A DNA stretch of 50,784 nucleotides, from the NCBI GenBank assembly GCA_032718475.1, contig JAUCBJ010001918.1:1-50784 (forward strand), read 5' to 3'. Both the position numbers and the translations under genes were made by a program. Shown one piece after another: positions 363-39,728 of the stretch (position 1 is its first letter; each line of letters opens with the position of its first letter). This DNA is from Nemertoderma westbladi. Its lineage: Eukaryota; Animalia; Xenacoelomorpha. The notes beneath the pieces are model-generated. The model searched no databases. It was not told where the DNA came from and was given only the letters and a program-made list of their open reading frames with translations.

Positions 363-940
363 CTGGAAAAGTGTGACAACATTTAAATAAGCGAATGATG
401 AATGTAAATTAATTAATATATTAATTATTAATAATTAATATAATAATGTCCAGGTTTATAAACAAGTTATATAAGAAGAATAAGAAGAATTTAAATTTAT
501 AGCAGATAGTGTTGCAAATTGACCGCAAGTGGCAAAGGTGATCTTCAGCTCAAATTGACAGCAAGTGAAATAAAGTTTAGTTTAATATTTTGGAGAGAAA
601 ACACCGCCTCTGTATGTTGTTTGTAACCTGCTCCTTTCTCTTATTAAAGTTTTCAATCAAATGAAATAAATTTTTTATAAACCCCCTAAATACCTGTTGG
701 TGTTTGCGGTCATTTATTGTGCCGTTATTGTCTGGTTTGACAAATCATTTTGGATATAATAAGGACAATGAAAACAATTCAAACTGCAAACAACCCAAAC
801 AAACTACACTACGGGGCCTACGAAACAATAATTATAGTCAATCCTCGCTCTCCATCATCAGTCCCATTATTGTAAACAAATTGAATAATAATTATGACTC
901 CCATGCACTTGCACTACTACTCTGTGAGATACATAATTTT

Positions 941-2210
941 ACACGAAGTGGGGCCTTCGCGCAGCACGTGAAATGAGTTAATGCTAAGTATCAACTCGAA
1001 AGGATTATAAAAACATAGGAGAAGATTTTCCCGGAAAACGTTAACCCTCTAGCGGGAGACTGGGTAACTGAAGAAGGAAGGATTAGTTTCCCTACAAAGC
1101 CACAGCCTATGGTCTATTACATATCTACCAAGTTTCCGATTGACGGATCATAAATAACGAAATGTTGGAAGGTTTTCACTTTCATACATTTAGCCCTCTA
1201 GCGGCATATTAAAGAACTACGGATCGATCACCTTCCTCACAAAGACGAGGCATGTGGTCTAGTACATACCGGTACTGTATATTCCAAAATTCAGCTTAAA
1301 TAGATTAAGATCAAGGAATTCGCGAAGGTTATCACTTTCCTACATTTCGCCCTCTAGCGGCAGACTCGAAAACTCCGGACCGATTACTGTCCACACAAAG
1401 ACTTAGGATGTCTTCTAGTACATATATGACAAGTTTCAGCGTAATCAGATCATAAACAACTAAATGGAAGAATAATTTCACATTCGGGACATTTCGCCCT
1501 CTAGCGGCAGACTGGAGAACTGCAGACAGATTAGCCTCCTTTGAAATTTACAGCTAATGGTCTAGTACATACTTCCCAAGTTTCAGCTTAAACGGATTAA
1601 AAGCAAAGAAATGGGTGGCCATTTAATGTTTAGACATGTGGCCCTCTACCGGCAGACTGGAAAACTTCGGACCGATTACAATCCACACAAAGACTCAGGA
1701 TGTCATCTAGTACATATATGACAAGTTTCAGCGTAATCAGATCATAAACAACTAAATGGAAGAATAATTTCACATTCGGGACATTTCGCCCTCTAGCGGC
1801 AGACTGGAGAACTGCAGACAGATTAGCCTCCTTTGAAATTTACAGCTAATGGTCTAGTACATACTTCCCAAGTTTCAGCTTAAACGGATTAAAAGCAAAG
1901 AAATGGGTGGCCATTTAATGTTTAGACATGTGGCCCTCTAGCGGGAGACCATTGCACTGATGGTGTCTGAAAGTCTCTCAAAAATCTCAACTTTTGCTCA
2001 TATTGATACCTACAAATTTTCAACTTGGCAGCTTTAAATCCGACAAAGTTATTAGCATGTCAAAATCGTAACGACGACGACGACGACGACGACGACAACG
2101 ACGACGACGACACGACGACGACGACGACAACTATTTGCATAAATTGACCCACCCCCTAACAGTGTCAATTCGCTAAGGCTCCGCCAACTTCGTGGCTCGC
2201 CCCACATGAT
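941..2210. mobile_element. Non-autonomous Helentron/DINE-1-like (HINE-type) element with about 147-bp internal tandem repeats
   Basis: Imperfect subterminal inverted repeats (acacgaagtggggccttcgcg at 941 vs cgctaaggctccgccaacttcgtgg at 2171), seven core units each with CCCTCTA(G/C)CGG, a near-exact 292-bp internal duplication, (GAC)n near the 3' end, T-run at the 5' flank. Confidence 0.6.
2071..2130. repeat. (GAC/ACG)n microsatellite, about 19 imperfect units
   Basis: Directly visible acgacgacg run inside the element above. Confidence 0.95.
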
Positions 2211-2471: not shown

Positions 2472-3143
2472 ATGTCGGATGTAGCTGATGTTGAGTTACC
2501 GAACGGTGACTTATCTGACGAAGACGTGGAAACCTTAAGCTCCGGCGAAGTCGCAAAGAAACTCCAGGAAGCCTGGCTTAACGAAAAGTTTGCCCCCGAG
2601 TTGCTGACCCCGGCAACCGATATTCTAGAATGTATGTTGGAGCAGATCGAATCGCTGGATGCGAACCTTCGTACCGCGATGGATTCGGGACACATTAGCG
2701 CGAAGATGCCAATACATCGGATGGAGTTGGAACGACTGCGATACGTTGTAGTTAGTTACATTCGAACGCGATTGGCTAAAATCCAAGGGAATGTGTGGCA
2801 GATATTAGCCAATGAGAGTGAGCGGATCAAACTGATGCCCAATGAGAAGGTTTTCGCTGAGGGTTATAGGGCTTCCGTGGAAGAAGTCTTTGAATCCAGT
2901 GCGCTCTCCAAACTCCCCGGTAGCTTCCGGACTCTGGACAGAACCAGTCTGGAGACGGTAGGACGACCCAATCTCAACAGTTACGTGTTCGCCCAGATAG
3001 GGGAACACCAGACTGGTTTAGCTATCCCGGAGCCAACGGGAGACACTGAGGATATTGTGGACTTGGAGGCCGGTTCCAAACACTTACTACCATACAAATG
3101 CATTATGAGTCAAATACAGGATGGGCAAGTGAATCTTACGTAG
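2472..3143 (+). CDS. GINS4: DNA replication complex GINS subunit SLD5, 223 aa, uninterrupted CDS
   Basis: Sld5 motifs AWLNEKFAPELL, MELERLRYVVVSYIRTRLAKI, PNLNSYVF, DLEAGSKHLLPY; typical length. Confidence 0.95.
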   Translation: MSDVADVELPNGDLSDEDVETLSSGEVAKKLQEAWLNEKFAPELLTPATDILECMLEQIESLDANLRTAMDSGHISAKMPIHRMELERLRYVVVSYIRTRLAKIQGNVWQILANESERIKLMPNEKVFAEGYRASVEEVFESSALSKLPGSFRTLDRTSLETVGRPNLNSYVFAQIGEHQTGLAIPEPTGDTEDIVDLEAGSKHLLPYKCIMSQIQDGQVNLT

Positions 3144-4148: not shown

Positions 4149-6236
4149 CTAATAACTTCTTCCAAATAACGTATAATTAACCGCGGTTCTAGAACACGAC
4201 TTATGGACGCATTTAATTCCTTTAGACTGTATTTCCTCCTGGGTAACCGGTTGTTTGAACGGCACACACAGGGACTTGGCGCCCATAGAGGGAGCTCCTT
4301 CCTCGACCTCCAATCTCGCACTGTCAGCCTTTATACGATCCTCACATTCCTCAACGTGGCAGAAAGGGGCCTGGATGATCATTCGCTGATCCAACATCGA
4401 ACAAAACTCATCCCAGGAATCTGTTACCCCCAAGTGTTCATCCAGTTGTTGTTTAGCGCGATCGTACAACCATTTCTGGATGACATCCAACAGTTGAGTC
4501 ACGTCATTGACGAGGTCATCAACCGCTATATCTACTCTCTCGCCATTGTCGCGTCTCACAGCTACAACTTTGTTCATCGCGATATCTTTAGGCCCAATTT
4601 CAACTCTCAAGGGGACGCCCTTCAACTCCCAGTGATTAAACTTCCATCCAGGAGAGTAATTTTCACGGAAATCTCCTTTAACACGCAACCCAGATTTCTT
4701 GAGAAGGCCTTCGTATCGGACGCAGGTATCCAGGATGGATTCCTTGACTTCCGGTTTCATTCCTGCAGTGATCCCGCACGGAATGACTACCACCTGCAAG
4801 GTCGCCAACCTCGGTGGCATCACAAGCCCCTGATTATCTCCGTGAACCATGGCCATCACGCCTATAGTCCGGGTAGTCAACCCCCAGGAGTTCTGGAACA
4901 CGTGAAGATGTTCCGACGGATTCTTGGGATCCTCGTACATAATGTCGAACATTTTACTAAAGTTTTGGCCCAGATGGTGGCTAGTGGCTCCCTGTATGGC
5001 CCTCCCACTCCCTGGAATATACGCCTCAATGGTCGTCGTAAAATCCGCACCTGCGAACTTCTCCTTTTCGGTTTTGCGACCACGCACTACCGGTATGGCC
5101 ATTAATTCCTCGTAGATTCTCGCGTAGAGTTCTAGAATCGTGTGCACTTCGTCCACCGCCTCCTCCCGTGTAGCGAAGGCAGTGTGGCCTTCCTGCCATA
5201 GAAACTCTCTGGTTCGTAGGAACGGCTGCGGATGTTTGAACTCCCATCGGACCACGTTGTTCCACTGATTCAGTCGCAGCGGGAGGTCCCTGTGCGACTG
5301 GATCCACTTCGCGTAAGCCGGGTACATAACCGTCTCGCTGGTGGGTCGCACCGCGATCGGTTGGTCCAGCTCCGATTGGCCGGATCTCGTTACCCAGGCA
5401 ACCTCGGGCGCAAAGTCCGCGATGTGGGTCTTCTCTTTCTCGAGGGCGTTCTTGGACACGAACATCGGGAAGTAAACGTTCTCTACGCCGAGCCCTTTTA
5501 TCGCGTCATCGAACCAACGTACGATCTTCTCCCAAACCGCGTAGCTCCAATTCCTCAGGATGTAACAACCAGAAACATCGTAGTATTCGATCATTTCCGC
5601 CTTTATTATAACCTGGGTGTACCACTCGCTGAAGTTACCTTCCTTCGTGGCTTCCAGACCCAGCCTTGTCTGTTTCTTCGTTTCTCCTTCCACAACCTTC
5701 CCACCTTCAGCTGCAGCCTCTTTATTAACCTTATCGCTTTTCTTCGCCTGTCTTCCAGCACTAATTTCCTCGCCTGTTAGGTTCTTATATTCGAGTTTTA
5801 AGTCAAGTAATTTCTTTATTTCGATATCCAACACATCCTTTGAAGCCGCTGACGATTTCAGCTCCCTAACTTTCTCTCCTTGCTCCGAAATATCGCGCGT
5901 TAGTTTCTCAATTGTTTCCATTTTATCTCCAGAAATAATAACCTGTTTCTTTTTTTCAGCTTTCTTATCTTTTTTCTTCAATTTTTCCTCTTTATTAATA
6001 ACTTTACTAGCTTTACTCCCTAAATCCTCAGTGACACTAACACCCGGCACAGATGGCGTCCACTGCCTCCCACTCAACTCCTTATACTCTGTCTTTAGAG
6101 CCAATAGCGTCGCCACTTCAGCTGTAACCGCCTCCTTATTGGCTGATGATTGTTTCAGCTCCCTTATTAAGTCTCCCTGTTGGCGAATGTTGGCGTCCAA
6201 ACCAGCCAATCGGTGTCCAGCAGCCAGAGGATCCGC
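4149..6236 (-). CDS. EPRS: EPRS exon 3: two WHEP repeats plus complete prolyl-tRNA synthetase
   Basis: Acceptor ttgtag|GCG in frame with ORF 4149-6209. WHEP repeats IRQQGDLIRELK...LLALKTEYK and ISEQGEKVRELK...LLDLKLEYK; ProRS motifs RPTSET, FLRTREFLWQEGHT, GATSHHLGQNF, C-terminal LFGRSY. Confidence 0.96.
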   Translation of the reverse strand, partial: ADPLAAGHRLAGLDANIRQQGDLIRELKQSSANKEAVTAEVATLLALKTEYKELSGRQWTPSVPGVSVTEDLGSKASKVINKEEKLKKKDKKAEKKKQVIISGDKMETIEKLTRDISEQGEKVRELKSSAASKDVLDIEIKKLLDLKLEYKNLTGEEISAGRQAKKSDKVNKEAAAEGGKVVEGETKKQTRLGLEATKEGNFSEWYTQVIIKAEMIEYYDVSGCYILRNWSYAVWEKIVRWFDDAIKGLGVENVYFPMFVSKNALEKEKTHIADFAPEVAWVTRSGQSELDQPIAVRPTSETVMYPAYAKWIQSHRDLPLRLNQWNNVVRWEFKHPQPFLRTREFLWQEGHTAFATREEAVDEVHTILELYARIYEELMAIPVVRGRKTEKEKFAGADFTTTIEAYIPGSGRAIQGATSHHLGQNFSKMFDIMYEDPKNPSEHLHVFQNSWGLTTRTIGVMAMVHGDNQGLVMPPRLATLQVVVIPCGITAGMKPEVKESILDTCVRYEGLLKKSGLRVKGDFRENYSPGWKFNHWELKGVPLRVEIGPKDIAMNKVVAVRRDNGERVDIAVDDLVNDVTQLLDVIQKWLYDRAKQQLDEHLGVTDSWDEFCSMLDQRMIIQAPFCHVEECEDRIKADSARLEVEEGAPSMGAKSLCVPFKQPVTQEEIQSKGIKCVHKSCSRTAVNYTLFGRSY

Positions 6237-6610
6237 CTACAATAAATACTAATGATTATTAGTTAATTCATAAATTGTAATTAATAACATAATTTTGTTT
6301 TATAATGTAAATAGTAAGTCGGGCAAAACATAATCGAACCGCCTATATAGTGAATCTCAGATATGAAGAAATACATTTATTTTTGCTGTGTCCTTTTATT
6401 TTTACAATAAAATTAAAATTCTTAACATATCAACTATAAGGAAAATAATAATAAAATAATAAATAATAAGGAAAATTAAATAATTTCCGTCCCGGACAAT
6501 CGGACACTTGTGTCGGGTCGATTATTTTTTTGAAAAACTGTGAAACAATTATCAGCTATTATATTTAACGATTCTATAGTGTGTTTATAAACAACTCAAT
6601 CGTTCCTAAC

Positions 6611-7541
6611 CTTTTTCGTTCCCTCCTCTGAGCGTTCTACCTCCCCACGTCCGGATCGATGTTCCCCCTTAATCGATTTCGATCCGACGTCTTTCTGACT
6701 GCCGTCCGGTATGTATATCAGTTGGCATGGAGACGGCCTACTGGTGTACTTATTAACGGGTTGATACGGAGAATCGCAGATATAGAAACCCTTCCGTTGC
6801 AACTGAATAACATCGCCTTTAACTAAAACCGATAAACAGGGATCCCCCAACATTAGTTCCTCCTTGCGAGTTTCTTTGTTAATAAAATCCTTGAAGTTGT
6901 CGTCTTTACCCAAAACCGCCTTGGATATTAAATGATTAAACTCATTGCAAACAGTCGGTACAGTTTCAGCTAGATGTGTATCCGCCAACCAGGTTAACTT
7001 TAACGTTTTCTTATAGTCCGTGTTCTCCAGGTTGAGTTTCGCTTTGACTTCGGTAACGCGCTTGGTATCGTCCCGTAACACTTCTGTAACGATGACGTTA
7101 CCCCAGTTAATCAGCGTTACTACGGCCCCTTCCGCCAGTAACTCCGCGTCTACCGAGTCTATGAATATATCCGGGGCGAACCAAACTGTTTTATTACCGA
7201 CTTCTGGGTTCTTAGGATGTTTAGAGACTTCCTTAGACTCGGTAACAGCCCCGACGACTCGCATAGTTACCGCGTGTAACTTAGCAACAGCCGTGTATCT
7301 CGCGGCTACTGGGTCTATTCGCTTTTTGTTGATAGACCATATTTTGTCCCACTCCATAGTGACTACAGACTTGGAGCCGCCCTGCGCGACTATAAAGTCC
7401 TTTAGTGCGTCGACAGTGAGCCCTTTACGTAACATCCCCCGCACCGTAGGGAACCTAGGGTCATCCCATCCCTCAACAAATCCTTCCTCAACGAACCAAG
7501 TTAGTTTCCTTTTAGATAACAACGTGTACTGCAGGTTCAAC
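6611..7541 (-). CDS. EPRS: EPRS exon 2: rest of the GluRS catalytic domain and anticodon-binding domain
   Basis: Acceptor ttttag|G completes WEYAR/LNLQYTLLSKRKL; GWDDPRFPTVRG and IQLQRKGFY motifs; donor AAG|gttagg (phase 0). Confidence 0.95.
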
Positions 7542-8069
7542 CTAAAATGTACCAATAATCCGAGTAAAATAAAAAATAAGAGAAGATATAAATACATGTG
7601 CGTACGTTATAAATAAACTTTCAGTTTCTGTCCGAATCACCCCCCCTCACCACCCCCCCCCCCCCCTTCATCTCACACCCACCACTCCAGGGTATTTTGT
7701 TTTCAAATATTTAATTTTCGATAAGTTAATGTGCATCAAATTATATTTCCATTAGTTGTGTATTATCTGTTGTGAATATCATATAGCGTGGAGGATTAAA
7801 GATTAAAAAAATAATAATAATTTTATGCTAATAATGTGACGCACACAATTGCAGCACGAGAGCATGCGTTGCAGGGATATTATATAGAATTAATGGCGCA
7901 AAAAGACCACAAATAAGAAATATGTGGGTTTAATATTTAGTGGGTTTTAAATTTAAATTAAATTTAATTAATTTAAAATATTAAGGGAAAGGAGCAGATT
8001 ACAGTATCGGTGTTATATAACCAAAAGTATAAACAAAACTTTGTACTAATTTCAGCTACCAGTAGTAAA

Positions 8070-9875
8070 GTAACTGGATGCACCAATTTGTAACCTGGTA
8101 TTCAAATTAGAAACTGGGTACTCCAATCTGTAACTGGATGCACCGATCTGTAACCTGGTATTCAAATTAGAAACTGGGTACTCCAATCTGTAACTGGATG
8201 CACCGATCTGTAACCTGGTATTCAAATGAGAAACTGGGTACTCTAATCTGTAACTGGATGCACCGAATTGTAACCTGGTATTCAAATTAGAAACTGGGTA
8301 CTCCAATCTGTAACTGGATGCACCGATCTGTAACCTGGTATTCAAATTAGAAACTGGGTACTCCAATCTGTAACTGGATGCACCGATTTGTAACCTGGTA
8401 TTCAAATTAGAAACTGGGTACTCCAATCTGTAACTGGATGCACCGATCTGTAACCTGGTATTCAAATTAGAAACTGGGTACTCCAATCTGTAACTGGATG
8501 CACCGATCTGTAACCTGGTATTCAAATTAGAAACTGGGTACTCCAATCTGTAACTGGATGCACCGATTTGTAACCTGGTATTCAAATTAGAAACTGGGTA
8601 CTCCAATCTGTAACTGGATGCACCGATCTGTAACCTGGTATTCAAATTAGAAACTGGGTTCTCCAATCTGTAACTGGATGCACCGATTTGTAACCTGGTA
8701 TTCAAATTAGAAACTGGGTACTCCAATCTGTAACTGGATGCACCGATCTGTAACCTGGTATTCAAATTAGAAACTGGGTACTCCAATCTGTAACTGGATG
8801 CACCGATTTGTAACCTGGTATTCAAATTAGAAACTGGGTACTCCAATCTGTAACTGGATGCACCGATCTGTAACCTGGTATTCAAATTAGAAACTGGGTA
8901 CTCCAATCTGTAACTGGATGCACCGATTTGTAACCTGGTATTCAAATTAGAAACTGGGTACTCCAATCTGTAACTGGATGCACCGATCTGTAACCTGGTA
9001 TTCAAATTAGAAACTGGGTACTCCAATCTGTAACTGGATGCACCGATTTGTAACCTGGTATTCAAATTAGAAACTGGGTACTCCAATCTGTAACTGGATG
9101 CACCGATTTGTAACCTGGTATTCAAATTAGAAACTGGGTACTCCAATCTGTAACTGGATGCACCGATCTGTAACCTGGTATTCAAATTAGAAACTGGGTA
9201 CTCCAATCTGTAACTGGATGCACCGATCTGTAACCTGGTATTCAAATGAGAAACTGGGTACTCCAATCTGTAACTGGATGCACCGAATTGTAACCTGGTA
9301 TTCAAATTAGAAACTGGGTACTCCAATCTGTAACTGGATGCACCGATTTGTAACCTGGTATTCAAATTAGAAACTGGGTACTCCAATCTGTAACTGGATG
9401 CACCGATCTGTAACCTGGTATTCAAATTAGAAACTGGGTACTCCAATCTGTAACTGGATGCACCGATTTGTAACCTGGTATTCAAATTAGAAACTGGGTA
9501 CTCCAATCTGTAACTGGATGCACCGATCTGTAACCTGGTATTCAAATTAGAAACTGGGTACTCCAATCTGTAACTGGATGCACCGATTTGTAACCTGGTA
9601 TTCAAATTAGAAACTGGGTACTCCAATCTGTAACTGGATGCACCGATTGGTAACCTGGTATTCAAATTAGAAACTGGGTACTCCAATCTGTAACTGGATG
9701 CACCGATTTGTAACCTGGTATTCAAATTAGAAACTGGGTACTCCAATCTGTAACTGGATGCACCGATTGGTAACCTGGTATTCAAATTAGAAACTGGGTA
9801 CTCCAATCTGTAACTGGATGCACCGATTTGTTACCTGGTATTCAAATTAGAAACTGGGTACTCCAATATGTAACT
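8070..9875. repeat. 60-bp tandem array (about 30 near-identical copies, three ~20-bp subunits) in EPRS intron 1
   Basis: Unit aatctgtaactggatgcaccgat(c/t)tgtaacctggtattcaaattagaaactgggtactcc recurs in register on each 60-nt line. Confidence 0.98.
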
Positions 9876-9936
9876 GAAATCTGAAAACTGAAATTGGTAA
9901 CCATGTACTGAAATAAGTAACTGGAGACTGAAATTG

Positions 9937-10062
9937 GTAACCGGTTGCACCAATATGTAATCAGGTGCTCCAATTAGTAACCGGTTGCACCAATATGTAA
10001 TCAGGTGCTCCAATTAGTAACCGGTTGCACCAATATGTAATCAGGTGCTCCAATTAGTAACC
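9937..10062. repeat. 40-bp tandem repeat x3 (two ~20-bp subunits related to the 60-bp array)
   Basis: gtaaccggttgcaccaatatgtaatcaggtgctccaatta at 9937, 9977 and 10017. Confidence 0.95.
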
Positions 10063-10428
10063 GAACACTGAAATTTAAATCTGGGTGATCTATTGATAAT
10101 TCTTCCAATCTTTGTATATCTCAGTTGTTTCTCAATGAAATTCAGATTTCAGTTACTTACTATTTCGAAATCCAGTTACATATTTGGATTCCAAGCAACG
10201 CAATTGCTTTGTAATGATACATAAAAATCGTCAAGAATGGCCGAGGTGCAATTGAACAAAATCAATTTTGTTAAATCAATTTTTCAGACAAATTTGGTGA
10301 AAAATGCTGTGCGAAAAAACGTTTGGTACTTTCTTGGACTGTGGAATTTGTAATTGTAGTGTAAAATATCACAGAAATTCGTAAAATCGACCGCCCCCCA
10401 CACTTATCCCGCCCCCCTCCCCACTCAC

Positions 10429-11666
10429 CTCGCATACTCCCACACATGCGGACTCCGTAACCCCAATTCCCGTAGGAACCAGTAGTACTGATCGTCGCGA
10501 TCCCGGTACTCCGTGGTCCTCAGGGCGTGAGTGACTCCCTCCACCGAGTCCACTATCGGACACGCGAAATCGTAAGTGGGATAGACCCGGTAGCGATCCC
10601 CGGTCACCAGATGTGGCTCCGACTTGCACCGATAGATGGTGGGGTCCCGCAGACACCCGTTATCCGACGCCATATCGATCCTCGCGCGCAGACAGCATCG
10701 CAACCCAACCTCCGAGCCCGCAACCATCTCCGCCCAACCGCGCAGGTTCTCCTCAACCGAGTTCCCTCGCCTCCGCGACTCGCTACGCTCTTCCCGCTCG
10801 CGTCGCATTGTCTCCGCGTCCGTATCGTCGACGTACGCCTTCCCTTCCCGTATCAACTTATCCGCGAACCCCAACAACTCCTCGAAGAAGTCGCTCGTGT
10901 GGCTAAACTGATCCGGTTTGATCCTCAACATCTCCAAATCCTCGAGGATGACTTTCTCGAAGTCTGCCTTTTCCTTTGCGGGATTCGTATCGTCAAACCG
11001 CATTATCAACTTCCCTTGGAAGGCCGTCTGGTAATGGGCGTTGAGCAGCGCCGCCTTAGCGTGTCCGATGTGTAGATATCCAGACGCCTCGGGCGGGAAC
11101 CGCACCACAACCTTCCCCATCTCGGCCCCGGGCAGCGCCACGTACTTCCCTTCTTCCTTCCGTTGTGGCGTCGTTTCTTTCCGCTTTGGAATCGACGTAG
11201 AGACCCGTTGGAACCCCGGGATTTGGGACAGATGCGAAAACCACCGAGACACGTGGGGTTGTCCGGGATTGGCTTTGTAGTCCGCGAGGTACAAGGCGCC
11301 CCAAACAGCGAAGTCCGCCAACGTAACGTTGTGTCCAACCAGGAAGGTCCTAGGAGCGAGACTATAGTTTAATTCGATGAGTCCTTCATCCGAAGGGAGT
11401 CTCATCACGGAGTAATCCAACCAATGATCTACCTCTGTCTGTTGCACAGGGTCCCCCCCATACAGACGGAGTTCCGGAGATTGACGAGCTAAGTACCGCG
11501 CTATAGAGAACCCAGAAGTTAGCTTTATATTAGCGGCGAGTTGCAGTTGAGTTGCGTCTCCCCATTTGATGTTGACAGATTCTTTGGAATGTTCCGCTGC
11601 TAGAAGGGCCGCTATTGGTGGGTTGATCTTCGACGCTGTTAGAACTGGGATCGATAAGGCAGGCAT
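10429..11666 (-). CDS. EPRS: EPRS coding exon 1: GST-like domain plus N-terminal part of glutamyl-tRNA synthetase; spliced CDS 4257 nt, 1418 aa
   Basis: RFPPEASGYLHIGH (HIGH motif), MRFDDTNP, YPTYDFACPIVD; donor AG|gtgagt in phase 2, matching exon 2. Confidence 0.96.
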
Positions 11667-26500: not shown

Positions 26501-29500
26501 TCTGCTGTTTGTCCGTTGGAATTGCTTTGACTCAGCTTTTCCTTGGCTGCTTTCTGCTGTTTGTACGTTGGAATTGCTTTGACTCACCTTTCCCTTGGCT
26601 GCTTTCTGCTGTTTGTCCTTTGGAATTGCTTTGACTCACCTTCCCTCTCGTCTACTTTCTGCTGTTTGTCCCTTCCCTCTCGTCTACTTTCTGCTGTTTG
26701 TCCGTTGGAATTGCTTTGACTCACCTTTCCCTTGGCTGCTTTCTGTTGTTTGTCCGTTGGAATTGCTTTGACTCACCTTCCCCTAGGCGGCTTTGTCCGT
26801 TGGAATTGCTTTGACTCACCTTCCCTCTCGTCTACTTTCTGCTGTTTGTCCGTTGGAATTGCTTTGACTCAGCTTTTCCTTGGCTGCTTTCTGCTGTTTG
26901 TCCGTTGAAATTACTTTGACTCACCTTTCCCTTGGCTGCTTTCTGTTGTTTGTCCGTTGGAATTGTTTTGACTCACCTTCCCCTAGGCGGCTTTGTCCGT
27001 TGGAATTGCTTTGACTCACCTTTCCCTTGGTTGCTTTCTGCTGTTTGTCCGTTGGAATTGCTTTGACTCACCTTTCCCTTGGCTGCTTTCTGCTGTTTGT
27101 CCTTTAGAATTGCTTTGACTCACCTTCCCTCTCGTCTACTTTCAGATGTTTGTCCGTTGGAATTGCTTTGACTCACCTTCCCACTCGGCTGCTTTCTGCT
27201 GTTTGTCCGTTGGAATTGCTTTGATTCACCTTCCCTCTCGGCGGCTTTATGCTGTTTGTCCGTTGGAATTGCTTTGACTCACCTTCCCTCTCGGCTGCTT
27301 TCTGCTGTTTGTCCGTTGGAATTGCTTTGACTCGCCTTTCCACTTGCCCACTTTCTGCTGTTTGTCCGTTGGAATTGCTTTGACTCACCTTCCCTCTCGT
27401 CTACTTTCTTCTGTTTGTCCGTTGGAATTGCTTTGACCCACCTTCCCTCTCGGCGGCTTTATGCTGTTTGTCCGTTGGAATTGCTTTGACTCACCTTCCC
27501 TCTCGTCTACTTTCTTCTGTTTGTCCGTTGGAATTGCTTCGACTCACCTTCCCCTTGGCTGCTTTCTGCTGTTTGTCCATTGGAATTGCTTTGACTCACC
27601 TTCCCCTAGGCAGCTTTGTCCGTTGGAATTGCTTTGACTCACCTTCCCTCTCGTCTACTTTCTTCTGTTTGTCCGTTGGAATTGCTTTGACTCGCCTTTC
27701 CACTTGCCCACTTTCTGCTGTTTGTCCGTTGGAATTGCTTTGACTCACCTTCCCTCTCGTCTACTTTCTTCTGTTTGTCCGTTGGAATTGCTTTGACCCA
27801 CCTTCCCTCTCGGCGGCTTTATGCTGTTTGTCCGTTGGAATTGCTTTGACTCACCTTCCCTCTCGTCTACTTTCTTCTGTTTGTCCGTTGGAATTGCTTT
27901 GCCTCACCTTTCCTCTCGTCTACTTTCTGCTGTTTGTCCGTTGGAATTCCATTGACTCACCTTCCCCTAGGCAGCTTTGTCCGTAGGAATTGCTTTGACT
28001 CACCTTCCTTCTCGTCTACGTTCTGCTGTTTGTCCGTTGGAATTGCTTTGACTCACCTTTCCCTTGGCTGCTTTCTGCTGTTTGTCCGTTGGAATTGCTT
28101 TGACTCACCTTTCCTCTCGTCTACTTTCTGCTGTTTGTCCGTTGGAATTCCATTGACTCACCTTCCCCTAGGCAGCTTTGTCCGTTGGAATTGCTTTGAC
28201 TCACCTTTCCCTTGGCTGCTTTCTGTTGTTTGTCCGTTGGAATTGCTTTGACTCGCCTTTCCCTTGGCTGCTTTATGTTGTTTGTCCGTAGGAATTGCTT
28301 TGACTCACCTTTCCCTTGGCTGCTTTCTGTTGTTTGTCCGTAGGAATTGCTTTGACTCACCTTTCCCTTGGCTGCTTTCTGCTGTTTGTCCGTTGGAATT
28401 GCTTTGACTCACCTTCCCTCTCGGCTGCTTTATGCTGTTTGTCCGTTGGAATTGCTTTGACTCACCTTCCCACTCGGCTGCTTTCTGCTGTTTGTCCGTT
28501 GGAATTGCTTTGATTCACCTTCCCCTTGGTTGCTTTCTGCTGTTTGTCCTTTGGAATTGCTTTTACTCACCTTTCCCTTGGCTGCTTTCTGCTGTTTGTC
28601 CGTTGGAATTGCTTTGACTCACCTTCCCTCTCGGCTGCTTTATGCTGTTTGTCCGTTGGAATTGCTTTGACTCACCTTTCCCTTGGCTGCTTTCTGCTGT
28701 TTGTCCGTTGAAATTGCTTTTACTCACCTTTCACTTGGCTGCTTTCTGCTGTTTGTCCGTTGGAATTGCTTTGACTCACCTTCCCCCTCGGCTGCTTTCT
28801 GCTGTTTGTCCGTTGGAATTGCTTTGACTCACCTTCCCTCTCGGCGGCTTTATGCTGTTTGTCCGTTGGAATTGCTTTTACTCACCTTCCCCCTCGGCTG
28901 CTTTTTGCTGTTTGTCCTTTGGAATTGCTTTGACTCACCTTCCCACTCGGCTGCTTTCTGCTGTTTGTCCGTTGGAATTGCTTTGATTCACCTTCCCTCT
29001 CGGCGGCTTTATGCTGTTTGTCCGTTGGAATTGCTTTGACTCACCTTCCCTCTCGGCTGCTTTCTGCTGTTTGTCCGTTGGAATTGCTTTGACTCGCCTT
29101 TCCACTTGCCCACTTTCTGCTGTTTGTCCGTTGGAATTGCTTTGACCCACCTTCCCTCTCGGCGGCTTTATGCTGTTTGTCCGTTGGAATTGCTTTGACT
29201 CACCTTCCCTCTCGTCTACTTTCTTCTGTTTGTCCGTTGGAATTGCTTCGACTCACCTTCCCCTTGGCTGCTTTCTGCTGTTTGTCCATTGGAATTGCTT
29301 TGACTCACCTTCCCCTAGGCAGCTTTGTCCGTTGGAATTGCTTTGACTCACCTTTCCCTTGGCTGCTTTCTGCTGTTTGTCCGTTGGAATTGCTTTGACT
29401 CACCTTCCCCTAGGCAGCTTTGTCCGTTGGAATTGCTTTGACTCACCTTTCCCTTGGCTGCTTTCTGTTGTTTGTCCGTTGGAATTGCTTTGACTCGCCT

Positions 29501-32500
29501 TTCCCTTGGCTGCTTTCTGTTGTTTGTCCGTTGGAATTGCTTTGACTCACCTTTCCCTTGGCTGCTTTCTGTTGTTTGTCCGTTGGAATTGCTTTGACTC
29601 ACCTTTCCTCTCGTCTACTTTCTGCTGTTTGTCCGTTGGAATTCCATTGACTCACCTTCCCCTAGGCAGCTTTGTCCGTTGGAATTGCTTTGACTCACCT
29701 TTCCCTTGGCTGCTTTCTGTTGTTTGTCCGTTGGAATTGCTTTGACTCGCCTTTCCCTTGGCTGCTTTCTGTTGTTTGTCCGTTGGAATTGCTTTGACTC
29801 ACCTTTCCCTTGGCTGCTTTCTGTTGTTTGTCCGTTGGAATTGCTTTGACTCACCTTTCCTCTCGTCTACTTTCTGCTGTTTGTCCGTTGGAATTCCATT
29901 GACTCACCTTCCCCTAGGCAGCTTTGTCCGTTGGAATTGCTTTGACTCACCTTCCCCCTCGGCTGCTTTCTGCTGTTTGTCCTTTGGAATTGCTTTGACT
30001 CACCTTCCCACTCGGCTGCTTTCTGCTGTTTGTCCGTTGGAATTGCTTTGATTCACCTTCCCCCTCGGCTGCTTTCTGCTGTTTGTCCTTTGGAATTGCT
30101 TTGACTCACCTTCCCACTCGGCTGCTTTCTGCTGTTTGTCCGTTGGAATTGCTTTTACTCACCTCTCACTTGGCTGCTTTCTGCTGTTTGTCCGTTGGAA
30201 TTGCTTTGACTCACCTTCCCTCTCGGCTGCTTTCTGCTGTTTGTCCGTAGGAATTGCTTTGACTCACCTTCCCACTCGGCTGCTTTCTGCTGTTTGTCCG
30301 TTGGAATTGCTTTTACTCACCTCTCACTTGGCTGCTTTCTGCTGTTTGTCCGTTGGAATTGCTTTGACTCACCTTCCCTCTCGGCTGCTTTCTGCTGTTT
30401 GTCCGTTGGAATTGCTTTGGCCCACCTTCCCTCTCGGCTGCTTTCTGCTGTTTGTCCGTTGGAATTGCTTTGACTCACCTTCCCTCTCGGCTGCTTTCTG
30501 CTGTTTGTCCGTAGGAATTGCTTTGACTCACCTTTCCCTTGGCTGCTTTCTGCTGTTTGTCCGTAGGAATTGCTTTGACTCACCTTCCCCTTGGCTGCTT
30601 TCTGCTGTTTGTCCGTTGGAATTGCTTTGAATCACCTTCCCTTTCGGCTGCTTTCTGCTGTTTGTCCGTTGGAATTGCTTTGATTCACCTTCCCCTTGGC
30701 TGCTTTCTGCTGTTTGTCCGTAGGAATTGCTTTGACTCACCTTTCACTCGGCTGCTTTCTGCTGTTTGTCCGTTGGAATTGCTTTTACTCACCTCTCACT
30801 TGGCTGCTTTCTGCTGTTTGTCCGTTGGAATTGCTTTGACTCACCTTCCCTCTCGGCTGCTTTCTGCTGTTTGTCCGTTGGAATTGCTTTGGCCCACCTT
30901 CCCTCTCGGCTGCTTTCTGCTGTTTGTCCGTTGGAATTGCTTTGACTCACCTTCCCTCTCGGCTGCTTTCTGCTGTTTGTCCGTAGGAATTGCTTTGACT
31001 CACCTTTCCCTTGGCTGCTTTCTGCTGTTTGTCCGTAGGAATTGCTTTGACTCACCTTCTCCTTGGCTGCTTTCTGCTGTTTGTCCGTTGGAATTGCTTT
31101 GAATCACCTTCCCTTTCGGCTGCTTTCTGCTGTTTGTCCGTTGGAATTGCTTTGATTCACCTTCCCCTTGGCTGCTTTCTGCTGTTTGTCCGTAGGAATT
31201 GCTTTGACTCACCTTCCCCTTGGCTGCTTTCTGCTGTTTGTCCGTTGGAATTGCTTTGACTCACCATCCCTCTCGGCTGCTTTCTGCTGTTTGTCCGTTG
31301 GAATTGCTTTGACTCACCTTTCCACTTGCCCACTTTCTGCTGTTTGTCCGTTGGAATTGCTTTGAATCAACTTCCCTTTCGGCTGCTTTCTGCTGTTTGT
31401 CCGTTGGAATTGCTTTGACTCACCTTTACACTTGCCCACTTTCTGCTGTTTGTCCGTTGGAATTGCTTTGACTCACCTCCCCTCTCGTCTACTTTCTTCT
31501 GTTTGTCCGTTGGAATTGCTTCGACTCACCTTCCCCTCGGCTACTTTCTGCTGTTTGTCCGTTGGAATTGCTTTGACTCACCTTCCCTCTCGGCTGCTTT
31601 ATGCTGTTTGTCCGTTGGAATTGCTTTGACTCACCTTTCCACTTGCCCACTTTCTGCTGTTTGTCCGTTGGAATTGCTTTGACTCACCTTCCCTCTCGGC
31701 TGCTTTATGCTGTTTGTCCGTTGGAATTGCTTTGACTCACCTTTCCACTTGCCCACTTTCTGCTGTTTGTCCGTTGGAATTGCTTTGACTCACCTTCCCT
31801 CTCGGCTGCTTTATGCTGTTTGTCCGTTGGAATTGCTTTGACTCACCTTTCCACTTGCCCACTTTCTGTTGTTTGTCCGTAGGAATTGCTTTGACTCACC
31901 TTTCCCTTGGCTGCTTTCTGCTGTTTGTCCGTTGGAATTGCTTTGACTCACCTTCCCTCTCGTCTACTTTCTTCTGTTTGTCCGTTGGAATTGCTTTGAC
32001 TCACCTCCCCTCTCGTCTACTTTCTTCTGTTTGTCCGTTGGAATTGCTTCGACTCACCTTCCCCTCGGCTACTTTCTGCTGTTTGTCCGTTGGAATTGCT
32101 TTGACTCAGCTTTTCCTTGGCTGCTTTCTGCTGTTTGTCCGTTGGAATTGCTTTGACTCACCTTTCCCTTGGCTGCTTTCTGCTGTTTGTCCATTGGAAT
32201 TGCTTTGACTCACCTTCCCCTAGGCGGCTTTGTCCGTTGGAATTGCTTTGACTCACCTTTCCCTTGGCTGATTTCTGCTGTTTGTCCGTTGGAATTGCTT
32301 TGACTCACCTTTCCCTTGGCTGCTTTCTGCTGTTTGTCCGTTGGAATTCCTTTGACTCACCTTTCCCTTGGCTGCTTTCTGTTGTTTGTCCGTAGGAATT
32401 GCTTTGACTCACCTTTCCCTTGGCTGCTTTCTGTTGTTTGTCCGTAGGAATTGCTTTGACTCGCCTTTCCCTTGGCTGCTTTCTGTTGTTTGTCCGTAGG

Positions 32501-35500
32501 AATTGCTTTGACTCACCTTCCTTCTCGTCTACGTTCTGTTGTTTGTCCGTAGGAATTGCTTTGACTCGCCTTTCCCTTGGCTGCTTTCTGTTGTTTGTCC
32601 GTAGGAATTGCTTTGACTCACCTTCCTTCTCGTCTACGTTCTGTTGTTTGTCCGTTGGAATTGCTTTTACTCACCTTTCCCTTGGCTGCTTTCTGTTGTT
32701 TGTCCGTAGGAATTGCTTTGACTCACCTTCCTTCTCGTCTACGTTCTGTTGTTTGTCCGTTGGAATTGCTTTGATTCACCTTTCACTTGGCTGCTTTCTG
32801 TTGTTTGTCCGTTGGAATTGCTTTGACTCACCTTCCCCTTGGCTGCTTTCTGCTGTTTGTCCGTTGGAATTGCTTTGACTCACCTTTCCACTTGGCTGCT
32901 TTCTGTTGTTTGTCCGTTGGAATTGCTTTTACTCACCTTTCCCTTGGCTGCTTTCTGTTGTTTGTCCGTAGGAATTGCTTTGACTCACCTTTCCCTTGGC
33001 TGCTTTCTGTTGTTTGTCCGTAGGAATTGCTTTGACTCACCTTTCCCTTGGCTGCTTTCTGCTGTTTGTCCGTAGGAATTGCTTTGACTCACCTTCCCCT
33101 TGGCTGCTTTCTGCTGTTTGTCCGTTGGAATTGCTTTGACTCACCTTTCCACTTGGCTGCTTTCTGCTGTTTGTCCGTTGGAATTGCTTTGACTCACCTT
33201 TCCCTTGGCTGCTTTCTGTTGTTTGTCCGTAGGAATTGCTTTGACTCACCTTTCCCTTGGCTGCTTTCTGCTGTTTGTCCGTAGGAATTGCTTTGACTCA
33301 CCTTCCCCTTGGCTGCTTTCTGCTGTTTGTCCGTTGGAATTGCTTTGACTCACCTTCCCACTCGGCTGCTTTCTGTTGTTTGTCCGTTGGAATTGCTTTG
33401 ACTCACCTTCCTTCTCGTCTACGTTCTGTTGTTTGTCCGTAGGAATTGCTTTGACTCGCCTTTCCCTTGGCTGCTTTCTGTTGTTTGTCCGTAGGAATTG
33501 CTTTGACTCACCTTCCTTCTCGTCTACGTTCTGTTGTTTGTCCGTTGGAATTGCTTTTACTCACCTTTCCCTTGGCTGCTTTCTGTTGTTTGTCCGTAGG
33601 AATTGCTTTGACTCACCTTTCCCTTGGCTGCTTTCTGTTGTTTGTCCGTAGGAATTGCTTTGACTCACCTTTCCCTTGGCTGCTTTCTGCTGTTTGTCCG
33701 TAGGAATTGCTTTGACTCACCTTCCCCTTGGCTGCTTTCTGCTGTTTGTCCGTTGGAATTGCTTTGACTCACCTTTCCACTTGGCTGCTTTCTGCTGTTT
33801 GTCCGTTGGAATTGCTTTGACTCACCTTTCCCTTGGCTGCTTTCTGTTGTTTGTCCGTAGGAATTGCTTTGACTCACCTTCCTTCTCGTCTACGTTCTGC
33901 TGTTTGTCCGTTGGAATTGCTTTGACTCACCTTTCCCTTGGCTGCTTTCTGTTGTTTGTCCGTAGGAATTGCTTTGACTCACCTTTCCCTTGGCTGCTTT
34001 CTGTTGTTTGTCCGTAGGAATTGCTTTGACTCACCTTTCCCTTGGCTGCTTTCTGCTGTTTGTCCGTAGGAATTGCTTTGACTCACCTTTCCCTTGGCTG
34101 CTTTCTGCTGTTTGTCCGTTGGAATTGCTTTGACTCACCTTCCCACTCGGCTGCTTTCTGCTGTTTGTCCGTTGGAATTGCTTTGACTCACCTTCCCACT
34201 CGGCTGCTTTCTGCTGTTTGTCCGTAGGAATTGCTTTGACTCACCTTCCTTCTCGTCTACGTTCTGCTGTTTGTCCGTTGGAATTGCTTTGACTCACCTT
34301 TCCCTTGGCTGCTTTCTGCTGTTTGTCCGTTGGAATTGCTTTGACTCACCTTCCCACTCGGCTGCTTTCTGCTGTTTGTCCGTAGGAATTGCTTTGACTC
34401 ACCTTTCCCTTGGCTGCTTTCTGCTGTTTGTCCGTTGGAATTGCTTTGACTCACCTTCCCACTCGGCTGCTTTCTGCTGTTTGTCCGTTGGAATTGCTTT
34501 GACTCACCTTTCCCTTGGCTGCTTTCTGTTGTTTGTCCGTAGGAATTGCTTTGACTCACCTTTCCCTTGGCTGCTTTCTGCTGTTTGTCCGTAGGAATTG
34601 CTTTGACTCACCTTTCCCTTGGCTGCTTTCTGCTGTTTGTCCGTAGGAATTGCTTTGACTCACCTTTCCCTTGGCTGCTTTCTGCTGTTTGTCCGTTGGA
34701 ATTGCTTTGACTCACCTTCCCACTCGGCTGCTTTCTGCTGTTTGTCCGTTGGAATTGCTTTGACTCACCTTCCCTCTCGGCTGCTTTCTGCTGTTTGTCC
34801 GTAGGAATTGCTTTGACTCACCTTCCCACTCGGCTGCTTTCTGCTGTTTGTCCGTTGGAATTGCTTTTACTCACCTCTCACTTGGCTGCTTTCTGCTGTT
34901 TGTCCGTTGGAATTGCTTTGACTCACCTTCCCTCTCGGCTGCTTTCTGCTGTTTGTCCGTTGGAATTGCTTTGGCCCACCTTCCCTCTCGGCTGCTTTCT
35001 GCTGTTTGTCCGTTGGAATTGCTTTGACTCACCTTCCCTCTCGGCTGCTTTCTGCTGTTTGTCCGTAGGAATTGCTTTGACTCACCTTTCCCTTGGCTGC
35101 TTTCTGCTGTTTGTCCGTAGGAATTGCTTTGACTCACCTTCCCCTTGGCTGCTTTCTGCTGTTTGTCCGTTGGAATTGCTTTGAATCACCTTCCCTTTCG
35201 GCTGCTTTCTGCTGTTTGTCCGTTGGAATTGCTTTGATTCACCTTCCCCTTGGCTGCTTTCTGCTGTTTGTCCGTAGGAATTGCTTTGACTCACCTTTCA
35301 CTCGGCTGCTTTCTGCTGTTTGTCCGTTGGAATTGCTTTTACTCACCTCTCACTTGGCTGCTTTCTGCTGTTTGTCCGTTGGAATTGCTTTGACTCACCT
35401 TCCCTCTCGGCTGCTTTCTGCTGTTTGTCCGTTGGAATTGCTTTGGCCCACCTTCCCTCTCGGCTGCTTTCTGCTGTTTGTCCGTTGGAATTGCTTTGAC

Positions 35501-38500
35501 TCACCTTCCCTCTCGGCTGCTTTCTGCTGTTTGTCCGTAGGAATTGCTTTGACTCACCTTTCCCTTGGCTGCTTTCTGCTGTTTGTCCGTAGGAATTGCT
35601 TTGACTCACCTTCTCCTTGGCTGCTTTCTGCTGTTTGTCCGTTGGAATTGCTTTGAATCACCTTCCCTTTCGGCTGCTTTCTGCTGTTTGTCCGTTGGAA
35701 TTGCTTTGATTCACCTTCCCCTTGGCTGCTTTCTGCTGTTTGTCCGTAGGAATTGCTTTGACTCACCTTCCCCTTGGCTGCTTTCTGCTGTTTGTCCGTT
35801 GGAATTGCTTTGACTCACCATCCCTCTCGGCTGCTTTCTGCTGTTTGTCCGTTGGAATTGCTTTGACTCACCTTTCCACTTGCCCACTTTCTGCTGTTTG
35901 TCCGTTGGAATTGCTTTGAATCAACTTCCCTTTCGGCTGCTTTCTGCTGTTTGTCCGTTGGAATTGCTTTGACTCACCTTTACACTTGCCCACTTTCTGC
36001 TGTTTGTCCGTTGGAATTGCTTTGACTCACCTCCCCTCTCGTCTACTTTCTTCTGTTTGTCCGTTGGAATTGCTTCGACTCACCTTCCCCTCGGCTACTT
36101 TCTGCTGTTTGTCCGTTGGAATTGCTTTGACTCACCTTCCCTCTCGGCTGCTTTATGCTGTTTGTCCGTTGGAATTGCTTTGACTCACCTTTCCACTTGC
36201 CCACTTTCTGCTGTTTGTCCGTTGGAATTGCTTTGACTCACCTTCCCTCTCGGCTGCTTTATGCTGTTTGTCCGTTGGAATTGCTTTGACTCACCTTTCC
36301 ACTTGCCCACTTTCTGCTGTTTGTCCGTTGGAATTGCTTTGACTCACCTTCCCTCTCGGCTGCTTTATGCTGTTTGTCCGTTGGAATTGCTTTGACTCAC
36401 CTTTCCACTTGCCCACTTTCTGTTGTTTGTCCGTAGGAATTGCTTTGACTCACCTTTCCCTTGGCTGCTTTCTGCTGTTTGTCCGTTGGAATTGCTTTGA
36501 CTCACCTTCCCTCTCGTCTACTTTCTTCTGTTTGTCCGTTGGAATTGCTTTGACTCACCTCCCCTCTCGTCTACTTTCTTCTGTTTGTCCGTTGGAATTG
36601 CTTCGACTCACCTTCCCCTCGGCTACTTTCTGCTGTTTGTCCGTTGGAATTGCTTTGACTCAGCTTTTCCTTGGCTGCTTTCTGCTGTTTGTCCGTTGGA
36701 ATTGCTTTGACTCACCTTTCCCTTGGCTGCTTTCTGCTGTTTGTCCATTGGAATTGCTTTGACTCACCTTCCCCTAGGCGGCTTTGTCCGTTGGAATTGC
36801 TTTGACTCACCTTTCCCTTGGCTGATTTCTGCTGTTTGTCCGTTGGAATTGCTTTGACTCACCTTTCCCTTGGCTGCTTTCTGCTGTTTGTCCGTTGGAA
36901 TTCCTTTGACTCACCTTTCCCTTGGCTGCTTTCTGTTGTTTGTCCGTAGGAATTGCTTTGACTCACCTTTCCCTTGGCTGCTTTCTGTTGTTTGTCCGTA
37001 GGAATTGCTTTGACTCGCCTTTCCCTTGGCTGCTTTCTGTTGTTTGTCCGTAGGAATTGCTTTGACTCACCTTCCTTCTCGTCTACGTTCTGTTGTTTGT
37101 CCGTAGGAATTGCTTTGACTCGCCTTTCCCTTGGCTGCTTTCTGTTGTTTGTCCGTAGGAATTGCTTTGACTCACCTTCCTTCTCGTCTACGTTCTGTTG
37201 TTTGTCCGTTGGAATTGCTTTTACTCACCTTTCCCTTGGCTGCTTTCTGTTGTTTGTCCGTAGGAATTGCTTTGACTCACCTTCCTTCTCGTCTACGTTC
37301 TGTTGTTTGTCCGTTGGAATTGCTTTGATTCACCTTTCACTTGGCTGCTTTCTGTTGTTTGTCCGTTGGAATTGCTTTGACTCACCTTCCCCTTGGCTGC
37401 TTTCTGCTGTTTGTCCGTTGGAATTGCTTTGACTCACCTTTCCACTTGGCTGCTTTCTGTTGTTTGTCCGTTGGAATTGCTTTTACTCACCTTTCCCTTG
37501 GCTGCTTTCTGTTGTTTGTCCGTAGGAATTGCTTTGACTCACCTTTCCCTTGGCTGCTTTCTGTTGTTTGTCCGTAGGAATTGCTTTGACTCACCTTTCC
37601 CTTGGCTGCTTTCTGCTGTTTGTCCGTAGGAATTGCTTTGACTCACCTTCCCCTTGGCTGCTTTCTGCTGTTTGTCCGTTGGAATTGCTTTGACTCACCT
37701 TTCCACTTGGCTGCTTTCTGCTGTTTGTCCGTTGGAATTGCTTTGACTCACCTTTCCCTTGGCTGCTTTCTGTTGTTTGTCCGTAGGAATTGCTTTGACT
37801 CACCTTTCCCTTGGCTGCTTTCTGCTGTTTGTCCGTAGGAATTGCTTTGACTCACCTTCCCCTTGGCTGCTTTCTGCTGTTTGTCCGTTGGAATTGCTTT
37901 GACTCACCTTCCCACTCGGCTGCTTTCTGTTGTTTGTCCGTTGGAATTGCTTTGACTCACCTTCCTTCTCGTCTACGTTCTGTTGTTTGTCCGTAGGAAT
38001 TGCTTTGACTCGCCTTTCCCTTGGCTGCTTTCTGTTGTTTGTCCGTAGGAATTGCTTTGACTCACCTTCCTTCTCGTCTACGTTCTGTTGTTTGTCCGTT
38101 GGAATTGCTTTTACTCACCTTTCCCTTGGCTGCTTTCTGTTGTTTGTCCGTAGGAATTGCTTTGACTCACCTTTCCCTTGGCTGCTTTCTGTTGTTTGTC
38201 CGTAGGAATTGCTTTGACTCACCTTTCCCTTGGCTGCTTTCTGCTGTTTGTCCGTAGGAATTGCTTTGACTCACCTTCCCCTTGGCTGCTTTCTGCTGTT
38301 TGTCCGTTGGAATTGCTTTGACTCACCTTTCCACTTGGCTGCTTTCTGCTGTTTGTCCGTTGGAATTGCTTTGACTCACCTTTCCCTTGGCTGCTTTCTG
38401 TTGTTTGTCCGTAGGAATTGCTTTGACTCACCTTCCTTCTCGTCTACGTTCTGCTGTTTGTCCGTTGGAATTGCTTTGACTCACCTTTCCCTTGGCTGCT

Positions 38501-39728
38501 TTCTGTTGTTTGTCCGTAGGAATTGCTTTGACTCACCTTTCCCTTGGCTGCTTTCTGTTGTTTGTCCGTAGGAATTGCTTTGACTCACCTTTCCCTTGGC
38601 TGCTTTCTGCTGTTTGTCCGTAGGAATTGCTTTGACTCACCTTTCCCTTGGCTGCTTTCTGCTGTTTGTCCGTTGGAATTGCTTTGACTCACCTTCCCAC
38701 TCGGCTGCTTTCTGCTGTTTGTCCGTTGGAATTGCTTTGACTCACCTTCCCACTCGGCTGCTTTCTGCTGTTTGTCCGTAGGAATTGCTTTGACTCACCT
38801 TCCTTCTCGTCTACGTTCTGCTGTTTGTCCGTTGGAATTGCTTTGACTCACCTTTCCCTTGGCTGCTTTCTGCTGTTTGTCCGTTGGAATTGCTTTGACT
38901 CACCTTCCCACTCGGCTGCTTTCTGCTGTTTGTCCGTAGGAATTGCTTTGACTCACCTTTCCCTTGGCTGCTTTCTGCTGTTTGTCCGTTGGAATTGCTT
39001 TGACTCACCTTCCCACTCGGCTGCTTTCTGCTGTTTGTCCGTTGGAATTGCTTTGACTCACCTTTCCCTTGGCTGCTTTCTGTTGTTTGTCCGTAGGAAT
39101 TGCTTTGACTCACCTTTCCCTTGGCTGCTTTCTGCTGTTTGTCCGTAGGAATTGCTTTGACTCACCTTTCCCTTGGCTGCTTTCTGCTGTTTGTCCGTAG
39201 GAATTGCTTTGACTCACCTTTCCCTTGGCTGCTTTCTGCTGTTTGTCCGTTGGAATTGCTTTGACTCACCTTCCCACTCGGCTGCTTTCTGCTGTTTGTC
39301 CGTTGGAATTGCTTTGACTCACCTTCCCCTTGGCTGCTTTCTGCTGTTTGTCCGTTGGAATTGCTTTGACTCACCTTCCCACTCGGCTGCTTTCTGCTGT
39401 TTGTCCGTTGGAATTGCTTTGACTCACCTTTCCCTTGGCTGCTTTCTGTTGTTTGTCCGTAGGAATTGCTTTGACTCACCTTTCCCTTGGCTGCTTTCTG
39501 TTGTTTGTCCGTAGGAATTGCTTTGACTCACCTTTCCCTTGGCTGCTTTCTGCTGTTTGTCCGTAGGAATTGCTTTGACTCACCTTCCCCTTGGCTGCTT
39601 TCTGCTGTTTGTCCGTTGGAATTGCTTTGACTCACCTTTCCCTTGGCTGCTTTCTGCTGTTTGTCCGTTGGAATTGCTTTGACTCACCTTTCCCTTGGCT
39701 GCTTTCTGTTGTTTGTCCGTAGGAATTG
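23592..39728. repeat. 52/53-bp satellite array of about 16.1 kb (about 310 units), derived from the CFAP70 exon end plus its 5' splice site
   Basis: Minus-strand unit caattccaacggacaaacagcagaaagcagccaagggaaag|gtgagtcaaag; the terminal unit is the last 41 nt of exon 39688-39781. Confidence 0.98.

Follow-up and report, generated by a model that had tools for sequence, protein, structure and literature searches.

Three complete genes within a probable 39-kb, minisatellite-rich intron of CFAP70 in Nemertoderma westbladi

Two short exons of CFAP70, a cilia/flagella gene, lie far apart on a contig of the xenacoelomorph Nemertoderma westbladi (JAUCBJ010001918.1 in assembly GCA_032718475.1), with the genes SLD5/GINS4, EPRS, and TRMT1 and long tandem arrays between them. 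Does the host transcript splice across the whole distance, so that three complete genes sit in one intron, or does the arrangement come from a wrong join in the assembly, from two RNAs spliced together, or from two copies of the host gene? The window examined here is the whole stretch of DNA that was analysed, 50,784 nucleotides (nt); all coordinates are positions in it, and the CFAP70 host is on its minus strand. We conclude, with a probability of roughly 0.87, that positions 363-39687 are one real CFAP70 intron with complete SLD5/GINS4, EPRS, and TRMT1 genes nested inside.

The visible part of the host gene consists of three exons on the minus strand (a slash marks exon boundaries below). 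Exon B (225..362, 138 nt) runs from phase 0 to phase 0 between the acceptor ttttccag/GAG and the donor AAG/GTTGGA; its translation starts with ESVEDTSYTFHGVAF, ends in ...VTDK, and is read as ESVEDTSYTFHGVAFINMAKLLYPGVRKIRGAYKVHAYSDVMVTDK. Exon A (39688..39781, 94 nt) has the acceptor ttattag, ends in phase 0 at AAG/GTGAGT, and is translated as (x)LQSKIASTRYWPVEVMRTIPTDKQQKAAKGK. Exon Z (40128..40277, 150 nt), identified by tblastn, by a match in the PDB, and in a spliced contig of the run X4, is separated from exon A by a 346-nt intron with GT..AG ends (39782..40127). An initial annotation, made from the sequence before any database search, had named A and B as consecutive phase-0 CFAP70 exons; that two-exon reading holds, although it overlooked exon Z and did not mention the minisatellites that make up the majority of the intron.

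Homology supports the identity and the order of all three exons. In a search of the PDB, exon B matched residues 333-373 of the solved CFAP70 chain 9ijj_k (E 3.9e-10) and exon Z residues 253-291 of the same chain (E 2.4e-4); exon A alone, a query of only 31 amino acids, found no match there. In a large protein collection, exon B was matched by 34 of 36 scored candidates, the named ones being without exception mollusc CFAP70/TTC18 proteins (56-63% identity) and one unnamed match reaching 47%. The motif FHG[VI]A occurs in 11 of the 34, preceded there by ...KIAKCRYWPVEVMRLPQPAAAKGKKDEEGAISFHGVAF... or close variants, which implies that exon A is followed directly by exon B. When eight mollusc CFAP70 proteins were used as tblastn queries, all eight matched exons Z, A, and B colinearly, on the strand and in the order expected of one gene (E 3e-10 to 8e-6 for Z, 1e-5 to 0.036 for A, and 1e-13 to 2e-12 for B). 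Together the exons span residues ~260-376 in each of these proteins; in P0003, for example, Z reaches residue 293, A covers 305-331, and B covers 334-376. Joined, they give 127 stop-free codons. The similarity is to the conserved N-terminal region of CFAP70 (TTC18); TPR Pfam families are listed for the proteins that match exon B, and the corresponding C-terminal part of the gene is outside the window.

The junction itself is present in spliced contigs. Read evidence came from five runs in three studies that contain the stretch, all labelled 'DNA?'; X1 and X3 are DNA runs, and X5 belongs to a different study from X4 but to the same sample as X1. One X4 record (2624 nt, depth 121.6, minus strand) carries exon Z (record positions 862-1018, window 40280-40124) followed by exon A (1019-1109, window 39777-39687), skipping the 346-nt GT..AG intron. 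A record of equal length, depth, and strand carries exon B (1107-1246, window 364-225). The three record positions that the two share are the letters AG/G, which are compatible with both sides; past 39687 the unmatched letters give the start of exon B in reverse complement, and past 364 they give the end of exon A. Because length, depth, and strand are the same, the record coordinates abut, and the unmatched letters agree, we infer that the two records are one contig in which Z, A, and B are joined exactly at 39688/362. In X5, a 151-nt record skips the same 346-nt intron and runs 15 letters into exon B, so that the junction from 39688 to 362, on which the initial annotation had staked its two-exon reading, appears in spliced contigs of both runs, which come from different studies.

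The pattern of cover suggests that X4 and X5 behave as RNA. Neither run has any cover on the 346-nt Z-A intron that its contigs join across, whereas the DNA runs X1 and X3 cover that intron at depths of 25 and 27 and have a depth of 0 on the spliced joint; in these two DNA runs, a retrocopy thus does not account for the spliced form. The X4 contig has 861 record positions ahead of exon Z, equivalent to ~252 codons and a short leader, in agreement with an exon Z alignment that starts at residue 253 of the solved protein. In it, just one array unit separates the unique part of exon A from exon B. The mRNA thus joins Z, A, and B exactly, via the first donor copy and the last acceptor copy of the arrays that are described below.

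The intron between A and B (363..39687, minus strand) is 39,325 nt long with GT..AG ends, its junction being present in the X4 and X5 contigs. Tandem array accounts for ~23.4 kb of it (60%) and a block of three genes for 15.4 kb. These genes (2472-17856) lie wholly between the consecutive host exons B and A, as had been proposed at the outset, and each opens with an ATG, ends at a stop, and carries all the Pfam domains of its kind.

SLD5/GINS4 (2472..3143, plus strand, antisense to the host) is a single open reading frame (ORF) from ATG to stop, with the Pfam domains Sld5 and SLD5_C (2439-3143, plus strand). EPRS, the bifunctional Glu/Pro-tRNA ligase (4149..11666), is on the host strand and is defined by Pfam domains, splice sites, and an ATG and stop. 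Its coding exons are 11666-10429, 7541 to about 6611, and 6236-4149, with the donor of the second at 6611 or 6641; the underlying minus-strand ORFs with Pfam domains (11723-10425, 7606-6596, and 6236-4149) encode, in order, GST_C and the GluRS core; the GluRS C-terminal domains; and two WHEP domains, the ProRS core, the anticodon-binding domain, and ProRS-C. The best relatives of EPRS are annelid, bivalve, nemertean, and brittle-star proteins with 59-62% identity. TRMT1, the tRNA G26 N2,N2-dimethyltransferase (15898..17856, plus strand, antisense to the host), is again a single ORF, with a TRM match in Pfam at E 7e-105 over 15871-17856 (plus strand), candidate ATG codons at 15898, 15937, and 16114, and best relatives at ~42% identity. 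No protein match of CFAP70, EPRS, or TRMT1 exceeds ~63% identity. Within the TRMT1 ORF, at 17124-17279, there is an in-frame 36-bp repeat of 4.2 units coding for QRPV(D/E)GTPP..AT-like motifs.

EPRS and TRMT1 stand head to head, ~4.4 kb apart, and EPRS and GINS4 tail to tail, ~1 kb apart. The convergent stops of the latter pair delimit 3144-4148, and the sole AATAAA/ATTAAA on the EPRS strand is at 3208, 65 nt from the GINS4 stop; the 3' ends of EPRS and GINS4 may overlap. Poly(A) hexamers within 1 kb number one on the host strand and four on the other, numbers too small to interpret. GINS4 and TRMT1 have no introns and EPRS has two, while the visible CFAP70 exons are 94-150 nt long. The three nested genes share a GC content at third codon positions (GC3) of 0.55-0.67, and coding GC3 is 0.50-0.67 in nested genes and CFAP70 alike, compared with ~38% GC in the surroundings. 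No poly(A) remnant was found in the flanks of the nested genes, and a retrogene origin of these nearly intronless genes is not supported. As to other content of the intron, nine spacer ORFs have no Pfam family, and searches for intron RNAs gave neither a tRNA nor an Rfam family at gathering score.

The largest of the tandem arrays is a 52/53-bp array on the minus strand (23598..39728) of ~300 units, each consisting of the end of exon A and a GTGAGT donor. The founding unit is made of the last 41 nt of exon A and the first 11 nt of the intron. Tandem Repeats Finder gives a copy number of 309.5, and counting by an anchor gives 299 units in 77 variants, the commonest of which, with 20 copies, matches exactly the final 41 nt of exon A plus GTGAGTCAAAG. 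GTRAGT is kept in 246 units. The array fits the description of a splice-junction minisatellite, in that its unit spans the exon-intron boundary and it begins inside exon A. It is one polar array, because divergence from the exon A unit rises gradually with distance: the mean edit distance is 1.2-2.6 near exon A and 5.9-7.2 at the far end. The donor used in RNA is the first of the ~300 copies. All 11 later copies that were tried as donors lead to a premature stop, as does read-through. Within the array, a stretch of 4554 bp is present in 2.0 tandem copies (30172..39328), with 8 mismatches in a 4620-nt comparison, all at its two ends; neighbouring 53-bp units, in contrast, differ by ~10%. A very recent unequal exchange would explain the duplication, as would an assembler loop; it is at most a hint of length instability in the array. 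In the DNA runs, the depth of array words is hundreds of times that of the flanks and is not to be read as a copy number.

Several observations weigh against taking 363-39687 as a single intron with expressed genes inside. X4 and X5 carry the label 'DNA?' and are taken as RNA from their pattern of cover, and the X4 records, numbered separately in two alignments, are probably one contig. Contigs are blind to rare isoforms, and use of decoy donors or splicing from exon A into EPRS exons may occur. A 1205-nt X5 contig shares 58 nt with an array unit (39651-39708) and then leaves the window sequence; its continuation was not found within the window, and it may represent a related repeat elsewhere in the genome or a contig chimera. 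On expression of the nested genes, the data are shares of words sampled from 100-7600, of which 0.71 occur in X4 and 0.51 in X5, the two RNA-like runs; contigs do not show transcript ends or expression levels. No read or contig crosses the arrays; in X1 and X3 the DNA contigs end at 39699, and it is the assembly alone that connects exon A physically to the gene block. Should the 4554-bp duplication be an assembly loop, as it could be, the intron would be ~34.8 kb long and not 39.3 kb. Finally, the passage of one cis transcript across the EPRS poly(A) region is a proposed step.

The alternative that survives best is that A and B do adjoin in the mRNA, but that a wrong join in the assembly has misplaced the gene block or the arrays between them and the true intron is a different one; we consider this very unlikely. 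The setting invites such an error, since the unique parts are bordered by long arrays (16 kb, 4.8 kb, and at least 10 kb), the perfect 4554-bp repeat resembles a possible assembler loop, the X1 and X3 contigs end at the array edge, and the 1205-nt X5 contig makes a related unit elsewhere in the genome possible; one lancelet array was misassembled in a draft genome, according to PMC3087553. Exon B, however, is tied to GINS4, EPRS, and TRMT1 by positions 1-18259, some 18 kb of mostly unique sequence that holds short arrays only. The largest of these (1.8 kb) is in EPRS intron 1, and the EPRS exons that flank it split one Pfam domain at positions 236/234. Within 1-18259, tblastn with mollusc CFAP70 found no other match to the host gene at E < 0.2. 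With no further CFAP70 exon between exon B and the gene block linked to it, the nesting is independent of the arrays, given cis-splicing: any cis arrangement leaves the three genes upstream of B and downstream of A. The order and strand of Z, A, and B are also right, and unit divergence changes gradually along the array with no break. A misjoin inside an array, which the initial annotation had named as a possible refutation, or a false duplication, would alter the length of the intron and not the nested arrangement.

A second alternative, which we judge highly improbable, is that the exons up to A and those from B onward belong to two RNAs joined by trans-splicing, with no 39-kb intron transcript at all. 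What gives it some appeal is that a cis host transcript, continuous as it would need to be, must pass a same-strand gene with a 3' end of its own. Plain cis-splicing nevertheless fits the common strand, the right order, the ordinary GT..AG ends, and the normal polypyrimidine acceptor; no promoter or leader of a second unit is seen upstream of exon B; and about one-third of human nested genes are on the host strand, according to PMC4394429. That A and B come from two CFAP70 copies, or that one is a decaying relic, can practically be dismissed: nothing except the distance between the exons speaks for it, whereas Z, A, and B occur in one spliced contig in an open frame, the junction has been observed, and exon B is 56-63% identical to named mollusc CFAP70, above the ~42% of TRMT1 to its best relatives, and therefore looks constrained.

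The preferred reading, one cis-spliced intron, entails a sequence of events that we present as a proposal. After exon A, RNA polymerase II would first cross 16 kb of donor copies in cis, then the 43-bp array described below, and go on through antisense TRMT1, sense EPRS, and antisense GINS4 to the acceptor at 363/362, the host transcript reading through the EPRS poly(A) site on its way. The spliceosome likely takes the most upstream donor by 5'-to-3' scanning, as in intron 7 of human F7, and transcripts spliced from later copies would meet a premature stop and would probably undergo nonsense-mediated decay. For the arrays, the likeliest origin is a duplicated exon-intron junction that multiplied through slippage or unequal exchange, and they most likely persist as ballast that is neutral or slightly harmful. 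Each of the nested genes would rely on a promoter of its own for expression.

The intron upstream of exon Z is also made of junction copies. Directly before exon Z lies a 22-bp array on the minus strand (40278..40782) with the unit TTGTTTATTGTTTGTGTTCCAG and 22 YAG/TTG sites, each unit combining 15 nt of intron end with 7 nt of exon start; the acceptor used by the RNA is the last of the 22 copies, at 40278, where the X4 contig starts exon Z. It adjoins a 56-bp array (40778..50784, minus strand) of ~180 units, which continues past the edge of the window. The 56-bp unit consists of the 3' end of the upstream CFAP70 exon Y, which is outside the window, and a CAG/GTAAGT donor; the junction of exon Y itself is likewise outside, and the unit carries the end of exon Y as it stands in the mRNA. 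Thus the 30 letters ahead of exon Z in the X4 contig have 68 exact occurrences in the array, and the exon-like portion of the unit, ...NSVGQSSYITD, agrees with ...NSVYITDS... in the mollusc protein P0031. The array contains 153 GTRAGT motifs, 83 of them within CAG/GTAAGT. That it might copy the exon directly upstream of exon A is ruled out by the intervening exon Z and 346-nt intron. The visible 10.5 kb of the Y-Z intron therefore contains nothing but donor copies (at least 180 units) and acceptor copies (22 units) from its own two ends, with the two arrays abutting and nothing between them. By a rough calculation, chance would give ~0.2 arrays with a unit across a splice junction in a window of this kind, against 2 that are visible in it and 1 more that the RNA reveals.

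Other repeats in the window are of different kinds. A 43-bp minisatellite (18260..23061, ~108 units), whose unit was inspected by eye, was rejected as a splice-site array on the grounds of its poor AAG/GTAGTC motif and the lack of an adjacent exon. A 60-bp minisatellite of 30 units (8070..9876), inside EPRS intron 1, was rejected likewise, as it begins ~360 nt from the EPRS donor. One minus-strand frame over it (8052-9830) is open for 592 codons; the Pfam scores of this frame to Flagellin_C and DUF3614, with 0 matched stretches, are a repeat artefact. Positions 940-1949 hold a very high-copy element, with a word depth of 20,000-146,000 in the DNA run X1 against ~25 in the flanks; a 147/292-bp tandem repeat follows it, and many contigs end or branch at 940 and 971.

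Both halves of this arrangement have precedents, and the case is a large example of each. In Drosophila ~10% of genes are nested, and in humans 373 are, two-thirds of these antisense to their host; one intron of human NF1 contains the coding genes OMG, EVI2A, and EVI2B, and MOB2 has 13 nested genes, as given in PMC4394429; the remark in the initial annotation that multi-gene nesting is unusual was therefore overstated. As in these systems, several complete and functionally unrelated coding genes lie within a single intron of a larger host, whose mRNA is still spliced across them. All three nested genes of NF1 are antisense, whereas in CFAP70 here EPRS is on the host strand and two are antisense, and a further contrast with NF1 is that the CFAP70 intron is ~60% minisatellite and that the genes nested in it have core housekeeping roles. 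A literature search for texts naming both 'CFAP70' and 'nested gene' found none.

Splice-junction minisatellites are known from lancelets as 'mirage' minisatellites, in Adh3 and in the globins BflGb6 and BflGb9, where they were proposed to have begun as junction duplications and to have grown by slippage or unequal exchange (PMC3087553). Judged by the same text, the arrays share with the lancelet mirages a unit that spans the exon-intron boundary, the capacity of 5' and 3' boundaries alike to be amplified, the retention of AG/GT in many units, and normal splicing that is undisturbed. The lancelet arrays quoted there are small (3 and 6 units in BflGb6), whereas those described here have ~300, at least 180, and 22 units and extend to 16 kb; and unlike the lancelet introns quoted, the visible part of one CFAP70 intron consists only of junction copies. 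The 37-bp variable number tandem repeat in intron 7 of human F7 is the closest guide to donor choice: minigene experiments have shown that its most upstream donor is chosen by 5'-to-3' scanning (PMC1557585). In F7, as described there, and in CFAP70, the first unit spans the boundary, the authentic donor precedes identical silent pseudo-donors, and the most upstream is used; F7 has several copies and was tested with minigenes, whereas CFAP70 has hundreds, known from steady-state contigs. What sets this case apart is the scale of its arrays, the presence of one on the acceptor side, and an intron visibly built from its own ends.

A broader idea, which we regard as unlikely, is that in this lineage splice junctions seed directional amplification, yielding introns of more than 10 kb from their own ends, and that hundreds of U1-binding sites at the same time aid transcription of the 39-kb intron, with its same-strand housekeeping gene, as far as its end by suppressing premature cleavage and polyadenylation.

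What is known in general of nested genes or splice-junction minisatellites is unchanged by this case. It carries two practical warnings: gene finders are likely to split this CFAP70 in two at the nested block, and the sizes of the arrays in the assembly may be wrong. It also provides clean, RNA-backed multi-gene nesting, including an essential gene on the host strand, in a poorly sampled animal lineage, and a natural test of how the right donor is found among ~300 near-identical copies and the right acceptor among 22.

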